DNA from: Eledone cirrhosa
Lineage: Eukaryota
Assembly (NCBI GenBank): GCA_964016885.1
Contig: OZ024740.1
Location: 150,226,001 to 150,290,000 of the forward strand
DNA length: 64,000 nucleotides
Direction: 5' to 3'
This document shows positions 17,051 to 30,540 of the stretch, piece after piece. Below the pieces are notes generated by a model. It saw nothing but the letters and a program-made list of their open reading frames with translations. It did no database searches and was not told the DNA's origin. Made by a program: the position numbers and the translations under genes. Positions within the stretch are counted from its first letter, which is position 1. Each line of letters begins with the position of its first letter.

Positions 17051-17424
17051 TGATATGTGGTGTCAGTCGAGTTTGCAATTTTCAACTGTAATGAGATGGG
17101 TAAATTTACTACCTTTTATACATTTTATACAGAGAAAAGTGGCTCCAGAATGCAAAGCCCTGTAAACTGTATTTCGACCAATCAGTGTGTAGTTTCACTG
17201 AATTACTACAGCTGATTGGTTTAAGCGTCACGGCTGGTTGAGCATGCTAACGACAAATAGTCATACCCAACGTATCAATTGTTTTGCTTTTTGAAATGAT
17301 GAAAATAGCATTTTCTATTAATCATCACCATCAACATCACTTTTATTATTATTATTATTGTTGTTGTTGTTGTTGTTAGTGGTCGTGGTCATAGTGGTAG
17401 TAGAAGTAATACCCCTAGGCGTTA

Positions 17425-19611
17425 TTATTGTTCATTTAGCTTGGGTTTGAATTTATCAATAAAATTCTTTTCTTTGATTTTTCTCTTGATTTCACTTGGG
17501 CTGTGTAATTTGTAGAATGGGAATATTATAAATATTCCCTGACCACATGTTGCCAGGTGGCCGCTTAGGGGTATCTGACGGACATTTGGGTCTCTGATTT
17601 GTTGACGGTGTACCCGTGCACGTTCCGATAGTGCATTTCCAGTTTGACCGACATATAGTTCTTCACAATTTGGGCATTTAATGCAGTAAATTAGATTTCT
17701 GCTTTTGCAGTTCATATTTGCATTTGGGAATATTTTTCCAGTTTTTGTTTTCATATATTGACCGGCGTGTATGGATTGACATGTGCCGCATCGATTATCA
17801 TTGCATTTAGATACAGTGAATGATTGGTCTTTGTTGTTAAGGTCAAACTTTGCTTTTGTTAGCAATTGCTTCAAATTTTTTGGCTGTCTTTTACTAAGAG
17901 TCAAAGATCGATCTGTGATTAAGCCTTTTAATTCATTACTTTGAGCAATGATCGATAGGTTTGCTTTGGCAGTGTTGAATATATTCTGGTGACATGGGTT
18001 GTGTGTCATTATAAATGGTATGACCAGTTCTTGGTTTCTTCTTCCTTTGGTTGTTCTAAGTTGTTGTATAGGTATTTTTATAGCCCGCTGTATGCCATTT
18101 TCTATAAGTAGAGATGGGTATTTTTGTTTGAGCAAAAATTCTCTTAGTTCTGTTAGGCGTTTGTACCTGGTATTCGTATCTTCTACAATGGTACAAATTC
18201 TTCTGGCTAGGCAGTATGGGATGTTGCGTTTTGTATGAGGTGGATGGCACGACATAAAATTCAGATATTGATGGGTGTCTGTGTGTTTATAATATATATC
18301 CGTGGTAATGGTGGTGTCGTTTTTGATTATCATTATATCTAGGAATGGTAATTTGGTCCTACTCATCTCTTTTGTGAATTGGAGAGATGGGTGTAGGTTA
18401 TTCAGGAGGATATTGAACTCATCCAGAGTATCTAGAGATTCTGTCCAGATGATGAAACAGTCGTCAAGGTATCTCTTCCAAGATTTTTCAATGTACTTTC
18501 TAAAGTCAGTACTATATTTTTCCTCTATTTCTTGGTAGAGTTGTTGTTCTAAGTATCCCATTACAGAGTTCGCGTAAACGGGAGCAAACTTCGTTCCCAT
18601 CGCTGTGCCTCTAATTTGGATGTAATTCTTTCCATTGAAGAAGAAAGTGTTGTTTTCCAGAATAAGTTTAACTGCGTCTAATATAAATGGCGCTGTGAAT
18701 CTAATGGGAATCACTTCTCTATGTTTTTCCACCCAGTATTTAACCGCCTTTATTCCTAAATCATGTGTAATGTTGGTGTAAAGGCTTACCACATCAAAAC
18801 TGAGTAGAAGTGAATTCGTTTCCGTGGTTTTGGGAAGGTGGGACAGGAAGTCGATATCATCCCGGATGAAACTGGGTATGTGAATACATAGTGGTTTCAA
18901 AATAATGTCAACAAAATTGCTTAGACGGTGAGTGGGGCATGTTGGACCAGCTATAATAGGTCTAAGTTTTAAGTCTTTTGGGTGTAATAATTTAATGTAC
19001 TCACTGTTTTGTTCTCTTACTGCCAGTTGTATTTCTTTTGACTTGTGAACTTTCGGTAGGCCATACAGGTTGCTGGGTTTCGGCTCAAAATTGGTGATGT
19101 AGTCTCTTTCCTTATCAGTAAATGAGTTGTGGTATTTTGAAGCCAGGTTGTTGATCTTCTTCATGATGTTGTGGTCTATATTTGACGGTATTTCATGATA
19201 GAATGTTGTGTCTTTCAGTTGTTCCTCAACCAAATCCTTGTAGTATTCAGTATCCATTATAACAACTGCACCCCCTTTATCTGCTTGTTTAATTATTATT
19301 GTTTTATCATTTTGTATACGTTTAAGTGCAGACATTTCTGATTTGTTAATGTTTGGCCTAACATTAGTATTATGTCTAAGAGGAAATTTAGACAGGATGT
19401 CAATGTATTGGTCGAGATAAATATTTCTTCCTTTTGGCGGAGTGAAATTTGATTTATTCTTTACTAGTGATTCATCACTCTCATTATTTTTATCAGCGAA
19501 GAATTCTACAAGACGTAATTTTCGACAGAATTCTTGGGTATCCTCCTTCAGTTCTTGGTGGTTGACTGTTGGAGTCGGTGTGAATTTCAGTCCTTTTGAC
19601 AGAATTTGCAT
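17425..19611 (-). CDS. PLE reverse transcriptase plus GIY-YIG endonuclease (frame open upstream to ~19737)
   Basis: LYGLPKVHK, RPIIAG, FDVVSLYTNI, GTAMGTKFAP, WKRYLDD, YYKHTD, CxxxxCxxC linker, NLIYCIKCPNC..YVGQTG; uninterrupted 728 aa. Confidence 0.95.
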   Translation of the reverse strand: MQILSKGLKFTPTPTVNHQELKEDTQEFCRKLRLVEFFADKNNESDESLVKNKSNFTPPKGRNIYLDQYIDILSKFPLRHNTNVRPNINKSEMSALKRIQNDKTIIIKQADKGGAVVIMDTEYYKDLVEEQLKDTTFYHEIPSNIDHNIMKKINNLASKYHNSFTDKERDYITNFEPKPSNLYGLPKVHKSKEIQLAVREQNSEYIKLLHPKDLKLRPIIAGPTCPTHRLSNFVDIILKPLCIHIPSFIRDDIDFLSHLPKTTETNSLLLSFDVVSLYTNITHDLGIKAVKYWVEKHREVIPIRFTAPFILDAVKLILENNTFFFNGKNYIQIRGTAMGTKFAPVYANSVMGYLEQQLYQEIEEKYSTDFRKYIEKSWKRYLDDCFIIWTESLDTLDEFNILLNNLHPSLQFTKEMSRTKLPFLDIMIIKNDTTITTDIYYKHTDTHQYLNFMSCHPPHTKRNIPYCLARRICTIVEDTNTRYKRLTELREFLLKQKYPSLLIENGIQRAIKIPIQQLRTTKGRRNQELVIPFIMTHNPCHQNIFNTAKANLSIIAQSNELKGLITDRSLTLSKRQPKNLKQLLTKAKFDLNNKDQSFTVSKCNDNRCGTCQSIHAGQYMKTKTGKIFPNANMNCKSRNLIYCIKCPNCEELYVGQTGNALSERARVHRQQIRDPNVRQIPLSGHLATCGQGIFIIFPFYKLHSPSEIKRKIKEKNFIDKFKPKLNEQ

Positions 19612-19658
19612 TTCATCATTGTCAAGATCTCTTTTAGATAAATTAATTATTTTAGGAT

Positions 19659-20225
19659 CTACGTGTACAGCTGTTTTGGGTATGTTTCCTCCTGGAGTTT
19701 TTCTTTTTCCGGTTTTTGTTGTCCTGACGTTAAAAAATGAATTTTTCTCTGTTCAGGATTTATATTCCTGTTGGTGTTCGCTTGATGAACTTTTGGTCGT
19801 GATATTATATTTGGTTTCGTTATGTATTTTGTCCTATTTTTGGTATTCTGTATATTATTTTTCTTCCTGTTAGCATTATTTTTAACAATCTGGGAAAATG
19901 ACCTAGGTTTGCTTTCAGGTTTAGATTGTTTTTTCGTCCAGTTTCTTGTGGGCAATCTCTGTTGAGATCTTGAGAGTGATCTGGTTATTCTACGTTTTGT
20001 TTCCACATTCCTTGTTGGTAGTCTCTGTTGAGATCTTGAGAATGATCTCCTGGTTTTACTACTTCTCATGGTCTGGTCAAAGGAATACCTATCGTGTTTG
20101 TGCTTTTTGTTCATGTTGTGTGCGATAGGGGGTTTTTGTAGAAAAAGCGAAGAGTTATTACCGTAGTTCTTCTTTGATTCAAGGTAAGGTGAGTGTTTGT
20201 GTTGGCACGTGTTCTGGCGTATGTC
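19659..20225 (-). CDS. 3' part of PLE1 upstream ORF1 (basic, low complexity)
   Basis: Overlaps the RT frame via a T6A heptamer; duplicated SRSQQRLPTRN; the ORF-track start at 20306 lies in an adjacent insert. Confidence 0.6.
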   Translation of the reverse strand, partial: DIRQNTCQHKHSPYLESKKNYGNNSSLFLQKPPIAHNMNKKHKHDRYSFDQTMRSSKTRRSFSRSQQRLPTRNVETKRRITRSLSRSQQRLPTRNWTKKQSKPESKPRSFSQIVKNNANRKKNNIQNTKNRTKYITKPNIISRPKVHQANTNRNINPEQRKIHFLTSGQQKPEKEKLQEETYPKQLYT

Positions 20226-20346
20226 ATATATATGACTCCAGTTCCCCAGTGAATTAACAACCCAACAAGGAACTGGGCATATCAGAGTATTGACAATATC
20301 ATACACCTAAACAACATATGTACTTGTCTATACCATACTAATTCAA

Positions 20347-20401
20347 ACTGCCTGAAGAGGTCACAGCCAAAGATGGCTGTCACTGAAATATATATAGCAG
20401 T
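20347..20401 (+). ncRNA. Hammerhead ribozyme in a short separate insert 20232-20450
   Basis: ACTGC-CTGAAGA-GGTCACAGCCAAAGATGGCTGTCACT-GAAATATAT-ATA-GCAGT, then AATAAA. Confidence 0.85.
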
Positions 20402-20445
20402 AATAAACGAAGCTAAATTTTAATCATTTGACTTTTATTTAACTT

Positions 20446-20545
<100 letters not shown>

Positions 20546-20587
20546 TTATATATATATATATATACACACATATATATATTTACACAC

Positions 20588-20714
<127 letters not shown>

Positions 20715-20725
20715 TATATATATAT

Positions 20726-20765
<40 letters not shown>

Positions 20766-20773
<8 letters not shown>

Positions 20774-22087
20774 AGATCAAAAGATGGTTAAATGAGTTCC
20801 ATGTATTTTATTATGCGCATTTCAAAAACAAATATCATCATGCAATAACATTTGTGTTTTCATCAGATAAAATAGGAGGACATGATATGAAGGTTAAAAA
20901 CACTTGTGGATAGTGCAGTTTTAAATCAACATATGAAAAGTAGTTTTAGATTGATGTGTGATATTGGGAAACAAATTTTTTTGAGGGGGGTGGGGAGGAT
21001 GAAAAAGAGGAGGAGATGAGAGTAAAAAGTGGAGGGGGAGGAGTATAATGAGGAAGGATGAGATAGGAGGAGAGATGGGTGATAGAGAGAGAGAGAGAGA
21101 TAGCTTTTATAACTGAGAAAAATATATTGTTTTACATAGAGAGGTTGAAAAACCGTTGGAAGATAATGTATAAATTAAAAGAATTTGAAAATTAACGAAG
21201 AGAAAAATAATGTAAAGTTAAGGTTTGTATATTGAAGGGTTTAATAATATGTGCGATGAAAAGAAATTGTTAATATGTATTAAGAATAATATTTAAGGGT
21301 TTAATAATATGTGCGATGGAAAGAAAATGTTAATATGTATTAAGAATAATATTTAAGGGTTTAATAATATGTGCGATGGAAAGAAAATGTTGATATGTAT
21401 TATTAAAAAAACAGAAGTAATGTAAGTAAGGATATATTGTGAGATGAGCATGAATAAGTTAGATGAAAGAGAGAAAAAAATAATGAATAGAGGATGAATA
21501 ATCTAACGTAAAAAAAAAATGTTTATGTTTACGAAGGATTTTTTGAAGGTGATATAAAGTAAGAATATAGTGTATGGTGTAATGATTGTTTCTATGTTAG
21601 GCACAGTGAGAAAAGGTACAGATTAGGGGTTAGAAATTAAAAGAAAAAGAAAAGAAAAGGAAAAGGACAAAAGGGAAGTGATGAATAGGAGTGATATAGA
21701 ATATAATAAATAACTTTGAAATAAGGTAGAAAGATGGGTATATTTTTAAAGAAGTATATATATATATATGTGTGCCTTTGAGAAGAGGATTCTGAATTGA
21801 TAAAGTTTAGGATATTAGCTGTATACTTTATGGAAAGTTCTGTGGAATGTATGCAAGCAGATAGAAAACAAGTCAGTGCGTCTATTTATTATAGAATCTA
21901 AATTAGATATAATGGTACATTTTTCATTTAGACAGAGATTGCAAGTCTTGGATAGAGAACTGTTCAAGTATAAAGAAGCAGAGGAAACCTTTTTCCAAGA
22001 GATGTTATATTTAATATTTTTGTCTTTCAAGGACCATATGAGTTCTGAGAGAGCCGTGTTGGTTCTTTTAAGTTTATATTTAAAAGA
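20766..22087 (-). mobile_element. PLE 3' fragment: GIY-YIG C-terminus plus long 3' region with HHR (20806-20872)
   Basis: W..KDKNIKYNISW..CNLCLNEK..INRRTDLFSICLH. Confidence 0.8.
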
Positions 22088-22139
<52 letters not shown>

Positions 22140-22143
<4 letters not shown>

Positions 22144-24598
22144 CAATGGGAAAATTAGGGATGGATACTCCTCTCTACGTACTACTAGTCTGAATAGATC
22201 CATAAATACCTTACCACCTGTGCAGACCTTATCTCATAGTAACCCTACGTGTGATGCATCACTACTTCAGCCGATCAATAGCACCCGGAAGTGAAACTGT
22301 AGAGTGAGTGCTAACTGCCCTTTGAAAGGTAACTGCCTCTCTAAGAACATCGTTTATGCTTGTGTAGTTAAAACCAATTCCTCTAATAGCACATATACAG
22401 GCTCTACATCTAACACTTTTAAGACTAGGTTTAATTCTCATATCTCTAATTTTAAACATGTTAAGTTTAAGAATTCTACTTCTTTAGCACACCATATCTG
22501 GGATCTTAAGGGAGTTAATATACCATATAGCCTTAATTGGCGAATAGTAGCACGCTCTAATAACCTTTCAACACATACTAAATTTTGTAATCTCTGTATC
22601 CTTGAGACCCACTCTATAATTTTCTCTAGGGAAACCTTACTTAATAGAAAGTCTGAGATATGCTCTTCTTGCCCCCACGCCATTTCAAATTCTTTCTTTT
22701 ATTATAAACCTAAAGGTTCTAGTAGTGTAAATTGTATCCATTAGCTGCTATATTCCCTTATCTTTTTAGTTTAGGTTCATTTTGTTTACCACCATCATCA
22801 TCATCATTATTATTATTGGTTTTTAACAGCTTTTCATTCTAGCTTTCATAGTCTTTTAGCTACCATACCATATCTATCTTCTTAAATATTATATTTTCAC
22901 TATTAACACCTTATGAGTTTATATCTGATTATATATTTTTTTTATATTATTTTATTTTATTTGGATTCTTCTTTGAATAACTACCCCCCCCCCACACACA
23001 CTTGTCATTCGCCTCTTCAAATATACTATAACTATATTCAATTCCCTTTTATGCTCCTTTCTATTGTATAATACAGTATATTGATTATGATTTTATGCTC
23101 CTTCATATCCTCCATACATTTCTTTTTTCTGTCCCCATTGGCCTACCATAATTCTATTTAAAGTCTGTTTATTAGATAACGTTATTCAACTGATAGTAGA
23201 ATATTTCATTCTTCTCCAGATATTTTTATAGTGATATCTTAAAATTTCGAGATTTTGATTACTTAAACCATAGCTAATTTTGTATTGACTTATTATGTAT
23301 TTTAAATACTTTCAATATTAATTAATTTAATAGGGTTTTCTAGTCATTTATCCGGGTTTGTTTCCTAAATTTTTTACTTAACTGTATGTGACACCTAAGT
23401 AAAAACTTTTGTTTTTATTTTTCGATTTCCGGTTGATTTTATTTATATATTTATACTACCATGCGTAGTTTTCTTTCTGGTTCTCATTCACTTATTCACA
23501 AATGTCTGTCCGCCAACCACGTAATTATATATATTATACTATGTTCAATATTTTATATTGAAGTTTTATATCATTCCACTCTTTGTTAACGTACTACTGA
23601 TCTTTATTATTTACCGATTATTAAATGTACCATTATGTTATGTTAAATTATGTAAATTCTGTAATATGTTTATATTTTTATGATTTTTGTAATGTTTGGA
23701 TAATATTTATTTATTTACACCAATTGTATTGAAATTTGAACTCCATCTGTTTTCTTGCAATGATTTTGATATTTTTCCAACATAATTTTTTCCAACATAA
23801 TTTAGTTCTGTACAATATTTTTTCTCACCCGGTCTGTAACCCTATATGATTTGTTAAGTTATATGCCATTATATTATAATATTGTTATTATAGTGTTATT
23901 GTAACATTTATATTGTTTGTGTAAATTAACCGGAGATTATCTATTCTATAATTATATAGTTTATTATATATTATATGTTTACTTTTAATCATTTATTCCT
24001 CATTTTATACTGTAAATAATATATGTATTATATTTTTATTTTTATTCTTATTATTCTTATTATTCTTATTTATATTTAAACTCTTAATAAGGGTTAATTT
24101 GTGCTTGTATTGATGGAAATGTGTATTGATATATATGTATATATGTGTACATATGTATATATATATGTATATTGGGCCGTTTAACATTATTATTGTTATC
24201 AATTATAGTATATTATATTATATTATATATAGTACAATAATTCCCGCTCTATATCACCACCTTTGTTTAGCTTTAGTTTTTGCATTGGACTATATTTGTA
24301 ATATGGTTCAAAATGTTATTCACTTCCTTAGCAATTTTTACTTGATGTACACTCCATATTCTTCTGAGTTTTTTGGCTTGTATTGGCCGATAGTGCTTCT
24401 TATAGCTTTAATTGCCCTGATGTGTCCTTAATAGGACGAAACATTGTTGGCTAATAAAGACTTTTGATGTATTGAAGGCTTCTTTGGTTTATTTTCATAA
24501 TTCTTCGGCTCTCTTTAATTACATTGAGCTATACTTATACTCTCATTTCTATAATACGAAGAGGGTGTTTAACTCCAACACACTCTAGTATTTTAATT

Positions 24599-29597: not shown

Positions 29598-30540
<943 letters not shown>

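Follow-up and report, generated by a model that had tools for sequence, protein, structure and literature searches.

A candidate programmed -1 frameshift site between ORF1 and the reverse transcriptase–endonuclease frame of a Neptune-type Penelope-like element from Eledone cirrhosa and its relatives

How could a Penelope-like element (PLE) express a reverse transcriptase–endonuclease (RT-EN) whose intact frame lies in the -1 register of ORF1, the frame ahead of it? The element PLE1, on the minus strand of the window (the whole 64,000-nucleotide stretch of DNA analysed), raises this question at a run of six T, where its two frames overlap. The features concerned are the following:

19731-19737, minus strand: slippery heptamer T TTT TTA (X XXY YYZ) of PLE1, of the same type and register in 13 other loci
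19659..20225, minus strand: 3' remnant of PLE1 ORF1, a basic low-complexity tail with IHFL plus 23 residues
19659-19661, minus strand: ORF1 (0-frame) stop TAG, 69 nt after the heptamer (family mode 30 nt)
19753-19755, minus strand: TGA that closes the RT frame upstream, 5 codons before the heptamer
17425..19752, minus strand: intact ORF of 775 codons for the RT–endonuclease, in the -1 frame
17434..17694, minus strand: C-terminal GIY-YIG endonuclease domain (Pfam PF01541, E 3.5e-6)

Read on the minus strand, the ORF1 frame (19659-20306, stop to stop) runs ...ATT CAT TTT TTA ACG... around the heptamer, and its stop lies 25 codons on, counted from the heptamer Phe. This reading bore out an earlier note on the same DNA, which had placed HFL over T TTT TTA, the ORF1 stop about 25 codons later and a -1 frame open from the heptamer into the RT-EN ORF. 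The RT frame contains no ATG from its closing TGA to a conserved IINLS motif, and its ORF matches RVT_1 (E 3e-6) in addition to GIY-YIG in Pfam. The heptamer in the -1 overlap of ORF1 and the RT–GIY-YIG ORF is thus real. An X XXY YYZ heptamer in register inside such an overlap is what a canonical eukaryotic -1 programmed frameshift site looks like, and calling the site a canonical slippery one was justified: UUUUUUA is the HIV-1 site (PMC12086091).

By its domains and motifs, PLE1 is a Neptune-type PLE. It has the RT and C-terminal GIY-YIG domain expected of Neptune, and two further stretches were compared with Neptune expectations, for the linker motif and for a hammerhead motif in the pseudo-LTR:

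17779..17805, minus strand: C-x4-C-x2-C linker motif in the PLE1 translation, typical of Neptune, Nematis and Naiad PLEs
17031-17045, minus strand: hammerhead-like by pattern match only: a minimal core (CTGAAGA...GAAA) in the PLE1 3' untranslated part, with no Rfam hammerhead

The linker agrees with CX2-5CxxC, and its spacer is long, as in the Neptune and not the Nematis rows of Fig. S2 of PMC8557442, compared by eye. The CCHH arrangement is also present, as CPNC between LIY and YVG with His residues downstream. PLE1 differs from Athena and Coprina in possessing the endonuclease and from canonical endonuclease-bearing (EN+) PLEs in having two overlapping ORFs, as its relatives do, and the trees, which include no named reference, set its clade apart from linker-less single-ORF PLEs. 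Rfam on 16500-23500 returned just TA-repeat artefacts and two sub-threshold snoRNA matches, with no hammerhead. The named close protein relatives come from bivalves or bivalve-symbiont assemblies. Viral contigs yielded no relative. Animal-type PLEs also appear under bacterial genome bins or symbiont names (L081-L097; P0006, P0009, P0065, P0100, P0128), where they are likely host contamination.

The ORF1 of this copy is 5'-truncated near 20225, as indicated by loose ends at 20224 and 20230 and a jump in depth, and its coiled-coil half is lost. The remaining tail aligns with a full-length 400-aa ORF1 (P0210) at 35% identity over 144 aa (pairwise E 1e-11). TA microsatellites flank PLE1 on both sides. 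The tail contains a 66-nt-spaced duplication (19942-20059), and three 60-nt tandem copies lie outside the element (21229-21408). A very high-copy repeat adjoins the truncated 5' end in opposite orientation and carries a hammerhead-like core with a longer stem II (20352-20388, plus strand). Elsewhere in the window we noted GIY-YIG-like remnants of other PLE types (22295-22744, plus strand, a weak Pfam match; 21815-22174, minus strand) and, by eye, minus-strand RT/endonuclease ORFs of non-LTR retrotransposons at 45588-47900, which has C-terminal C2H2-like motifs, 33056-35174 and 29725-30378.

If the offset between ORF1 and RT were peculiar to this copy, then related elements should show one continuous ORF. 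The window itself contains a second element:

37363-37369, minus strand: T TTT TTA heptamer of PLE2 (CAT TTT TTA), in the same register to the RT frame as in PLE1
37330-37332, minus strand: 0-frame stop of PLE2, 30 nt after the heptamer
37421..38758, minus strand: PLE2 ORF1 with the conserved helical domain, a long frame that is not the heptamer's frame
35528..37399, minus strand: PLE2 RT ORF, 50% identical to the PLE1 RT, with a TA repeat replacing the endonuclease part

The long frame stops at 37421, short of the heptamer, and we infer an upstream frame break in the PLE2 copy of ORF1. We also collected 97 loci, 80 of them from at least 411 metagenome matches and 17 from genome contigs. Adding PLE1 and PLE2 gave 99, of which 68 contained the RT N-terminal motif needed for anchoring. 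In quick trees (L015 left out) the PLE1 clade had a FastTree support of 0.994, and 11 of its 13 anchored loci carry T6A (8) or T6G (3), all in the -1 register. The two exceptions are L017, whose sequence ends 47 nt upstream of IINLS, and L076, which is paralogous to L002 but broken and reduced to T5. Five of seven loci in a second Neptune-like (sister) group also have a heptamer, T6A in three and T TTA AAC in two (L033, L045), while L054 and L015 have neither. Heptamer and frame offset recur in 13 other loci at RT identities down to 34%. The earlier note had proposed to test whether both are fixed in the family; 11/13 loci of the clade carry them, and PLE2 has the heptamer in the matching register.

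Sequencing reads point the same way. We used read contigs at 80% likeness from 4 of 24 listed runs, covering four coded organisms and three studies, one possibly the source sample. Summed contig depth 3 nt from the PLE1 heptamer was 64, 8,925, 4,595 and 964 in the four runs, and at a 5% threshold none of the indels listed (12 of 14) fell within 19201-19789. Substitutions in the heptamer may still occur, since 40 of 716 substitutions were listed. A single gap without an assigned position occurs in one bridging contig (X2 record 16). The indels listed in ORF1 were of 6 nt and 3 nt, plus three single-base gaps at 19999-20007 (6 contigs, 1 and 1). The best 150 ORF1 homologues extend to at most 546 aa and the best 120 RT-EN homologues to at most 817 aa, and a weak search among longer proteins returned no fusion. 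A copy-specific indel that broke one continuous ORF, which the earlier note had named as the finding that would overturn its reading, was accordingly found neither in the four runs nor in the 13 other loci nor as over-long homologues. Copies do decay generally, and P0137 reads from ORF1 into the RT frame before stopping; set against the same offset in 16 loci and the absence of any listed indel at the T-run in four runs, we regard such an indel as extremely improbable. The offset is very probably a lineage-wide property, and the heptamer, judged on these alignments, a candidate -1 frameshift site.

The register of the T-runs distinguishes this lineage. Within 300 nt upstream of IINLS, T6A or T6G is in the -1 register in 14 of 14 cases among 20 Neptune-like loci, at distances to IINLS from 20 to 68 codons. 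The same region of 39 other PLE loci gave registers of 3/1/6; these are mostly linker-less, and their RT frames often stay open for 150-180 codons upstream. RT bodies contain six T6R in 28,545 nt (registers 5/0/1), about one twelfth of the upstream density. All 14 runs are exactly six T and never contain C. In 16 of 16 sites a stop closes the RT frame within 0-15 codons upstream of the heptamer. A homopolymer at which RNA polymerase or RT slips, adding a base in some transcripts, could in principle give the same proteins, and a T5 copy (L076) exists. Two relatives, however, have T TTA AAC at the matching place, and the run is just six T long. Runs at which polymerases slip are usually longer than six. 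We consider slippage of this kind very unlikely.

Could RT-EN instead be translated on its own, by separate initiation or by reinitiation after the ORF1 stop, with the T-run kept for coding Phe-Phe or Phe-Leu? An in-frame ATG lies between heptamer and IINLS in 4 of 16 loci, and a killifish Neptune with two non-overlapping ORFs has been described (PMC12602865). Such an ATG is absent from the other 12, however, none is conserved, and the ATG starts of the 120 best RT-EN homologues are widely scattered. Coding need also fits poorly with the composition: the codons are TTT TTT in 14 of 14 cases against a TTT share of Phe codons of 61% in these RT frames (39% in PLE1, 17% in PLE2), and the flanking residues are unconserved, with a tail identity of 9%. 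Independent initiation is therefore an improbable account, if slightly less so than transcript slippage.

A frameshift at the heptamer predicts that ORF1 proteins end in Phe-Leu (FL) followed by a short tail. We set this prediction beforehand for 16 new close homologues and measured d, the distance of FL from the ORF1 C-terminal end, where d=12 corresponds to a stop 30 nt after the heptamer. Eight had d=12, one had d=14 and seven lacked FL. An ORF1 profile search then gave 807 representatives at 50% clustering; of the best 150, we kept the 97 whose tail extended 60 aa or more beyond the conserved domain and dropped 53. FL occurred within the last 40 aa in 71 of the 97, counted at the protein level, where FL does not imply TTT TTA codons, against a background of 4 in 8,813 tail positions; 26 had none. 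In four homologues (P0135, P0140, P0171, P0273) Phe-Arg takes the place of Phe-Leu, 11-13 residues before the C-terminus, which may reflect a variant shift site.

The position of the stop is unevenly distributed. Among the 71 proteins with FL, d was never 2-11, was 12 in 27 and lay between 13 and 40 in 44 (hazard 0.055 per codon). The d=12 proteins have a median core identity of 33% and an average tail identity of 9%. Collapsing 68 of the 71 at 45% core identity left 27 clusters, 11 of which included d=12 and none a lower value; at 40%, d=12 was present in 5 of 14. With a composition-aware chance of 0.76 per locus of meeting no stop in ten codons, the stop-free floor would arise by chance with a probability of about 6e-4 when 27 clusters are counted, or 0.02 when 14 are. 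At the DNA level d=12 was found in 7 of 14 T6R loci (PLE2, L002, L007, L010, L012, L014, L018), one of which, L018, has an unrelated ORF1 type. The PLE1 subgroup, with d of about 24-30, lies outside the 30-nt spacing. Further humps of stop positions at multiples of the footprint (22-25, 32-37) were unconvincing by eye. In five of the seven d=12 loci, a small sample, the ORF1 stop is followed by C, which we take to be a weak termination context. In L033 and L045 the stop codon directly follows T TTA AAC.

These data also bear on splicing, in which the T-run would belong to a 3' splice acceptor (T6AG), spliced RNA encoding RT-EN and unspliced RNA encoding ORF1. This is the strongest competing account, because AG directly follows 8 of 14 T6 sites and a codon starting with G (Gly, Glu, Asp, Ala or Val) follows FL in 50 of 68 proteins. 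PLE1 offers CAG|G in the same phase 14 nt from the heptamer start, about seven homologues without FL end in Phe-stop, which is compatible with an acceptor, and introns occur in PLEs according to the Fig. 1 legend of PMC8557442. An acceptor does not, however, account for the eight sites lacking an adjacent AG, in which the first AG falls in mixed phases (2,1,0,2,1,1,2,0). Nor does it explain why the tracts never admit C or why sister elements substitute T TTA AAC. Splicing would leave the ORF1 frame free, yet FL is retained in 71 of 97 proteins, and it gives no reason for a floor of 12 residues in d. We judge splicing unlikely, though it is the least unlikely of the competing explanations.

The preferred reading is therefore that frameshifting at U UUU UUA of PLE1 yields an ORF1–RT–endonuclease fusion, to which we assign a probability of roughly 0.85 on sequence evidence. 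A minority of ribosomes would slip back by one base at the heptamer, presumably by tandem tRNA slippage as at HIV-1 gag-pol. A full-length copy would give abundant ORF1 protein and scarce enzyme, the latter of roughly 400 + 770 aa. Against a frameshift speak the T6G of three loci, the 26 of 97 ORF1 homologues without FL, the long ORF1 frame of PLE2 that stops short of its heptamer, the lean of T6R in RT bodies to the same register, and a lack of stimulatory structure at all 16 sites. T6G is a less favoured slippery heptamer.

We sought the element that might stimulate such a shift. The earlier note had seen no clear pseudoknot, and the folding results agree. Minimum free energy gave z-scores of +0.54 and +0.16 for PLE1, hence no stimulatory structure, and across 16 sites 1 of 32 values fell below -2 (L081), with no consistent signal. 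A scan for simple, bulge-free H-type pseudoknots found none above shuffles in 16 Neptune-type sites; it would overlook small folds of non-canonical type, such as those containing bulges or triples. The same scan scored 6 of 6 sites in an endonuclease-less clade used as positive control (0/30 shuffles each). In this control clade (L029, L049, L061, L065, L066, L067) no endonuclease motif was detected. Its long ORF1 and the RT frame overlap for about 200-220 codons, starting some 270-300 codons before the RT N-terminal motif, and A AAA AAC is followed after 6 nt by a covarying H-type pseudoknot. The stimulator at the Neptune-type sites is thus likely not a classical pseudoknot. The 12 nt that start 6 nt past the heptamer are 66% G+C and 4% T, and may form a short local element.

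What could take the place of a fold? At d=12 the stop lies 30 nt from the heptamer, which is the spacing of collided ribosomes, so a terminating ribosome may act as a roadblock. Collided ribosomes in yeast are spaced 30 nt and 33 nt and accumulate at stop codons (PMC7784341). A trailing ribosome 33 nt behind the terminating one would hold UUU in the P site and UUA in the A site, and one 30 nt behind would have just translocated off UUU/UUA. In much of the family, a pause caused by the ribosome terminating 30 nt ahead would then be the most likely stimulus, whereas in the PLE1 subgroup the slipperiness of the heptamer and the short G/C-rich patch downstream would have to suffice. The U UUA AAC relatives, with a stop directly after the heptamer, might represent a second termination-linked solution; U_UUA_AAC is among the most shifty eukaryotic heptamers (PMC5009743), a paper whose searched text mentions neither Penelope nor Athena. 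Several observations weigh against a roadblock. The simple model leaves unexplained why a short tail should fare worse than a long one, d differs from 12 in 44 of 71 proteins as well as in the PLE1 copy, and in mammalian cells termination pausing rarely triggers collisions (PMC13341110). A minimum length required of the ORF1 tail may explain the floor in d instead. We hold it doubtful that a terminating ribosome drives the -1 shift without RNA structure across a large Neptune lineage. If it did, enzyme output would scale with ribosome load and termination speed.

The ORF1 protein itself is likely to consist of long helices and a basic disordered tail that serve RNP packaging, as far as modelling can tell. 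Pfam gave no family above cut-off, and a PDB sequence search gave one weak match, to a designed coiled coil. The AlphaFold model is all-helical (pTM 0.43) and had no Foldseek match at E<=0.001. We do not claim a relationship to Gag; PNMA/gag-labelled Atlas clusters reached only 0.80-0.81. The locus L003 has identical ORF1 copies on both sides of its RT-EN ORF (71-1375, 3770-5074), a partial tandem arrangement. In the second Neptune-like group (L018, L021, L032, L033, L045) ORF1 is different, 640-840 aa where complete, so that unrelated ORF1 types share the frameshift layout. It ends in a GDSN domain, with a DGxH motif in 4 of 5 and no corresponding Pfam hit; we take these motifs to be SGNH/GDSL esterase blocks. 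Fish and molluscs have Neptune-like PLEs for which esterases have been described (PMC5408684).

If the preferred reading is correct, annotation in the Neptune clade changes: RT-EN would be made fused to ORF1 through a frameshift, clones of the RT-EN ORF that start at the first ATG would miss the true N-terminus, and an offset between ORF1 and RT should not be scored as decay. Athena elements have a T6A frameshift site. Athena and Coprina resemble PLE1 in a frameshift between RT and the ORF1 ahead of it, which is a coiled-coil ORF1 there; they are endonuclease-less and drawn with a pseudoknot, whereas PLE1 has the endonuclease and yielded no pseudoknot. The Fig. 1 legend of PMC8557442 allows for an ORF1 set apart by a frameshift and pseudoknot in some type of PLE, so that frameshifted ORF1 in PLEs has already been mentioned. 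New here are the Phe-Leu near the ORF1 end and the floor and spike of the stop position. Our literature search, which did not extend to Arkhipova 2006/2017, Gladyshev 2007 or Repbase reports, found no published description of a slippery site in EN+ PLEs, and no paper on queue-stimulated programmed -1 frameshifting.

Among known systems, the Neptune clade shares with PLE1 the RT with C-terminal GIY-YIG, the CX2-5CxxC linker and (TA)n flanks (PMC8557442 and PMC12602865). The earlier statement that EN+ PLEs are usually described as single-ORF agrees with the abstract of Craig et al. 2021 (PMC8557442), which describes canonical EN+ PLEs in this way. Two-ORF Neptunes are nevertheless in print, in killifish (Roussel et al. 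2025, PMC12602865), where the ORFs do not overlap and the term frameshift does not occur in the text searched. In SARS-CoV-2 a 0-frame stop 5 codons off lets the pseudoknot refold (PMC8168617), whereas stops less than 10 codons after the T6 heptamer are absent here and no pseudoknot was seen. HIV-1 gag-pol has an identical UUUUUUA, and there too the RT ORF lies in the -1 frame and is fused to a structural ORF (PMC12086091); the putative fusion of PLE1 would resemble Gag-Pol. In HIV-1 the shift depends on RNA structure downstream; here no such structure is detectable, and where the 0-frame stop lies looks constrained instead. The family supplies dozens of natural candidate -1 sites without detectable structure, and the floor and spike of the stop position raise the question of whether a terminating ribosome, and not a fold or a protein, can stimulate eukaryotic -1 frameshifting.
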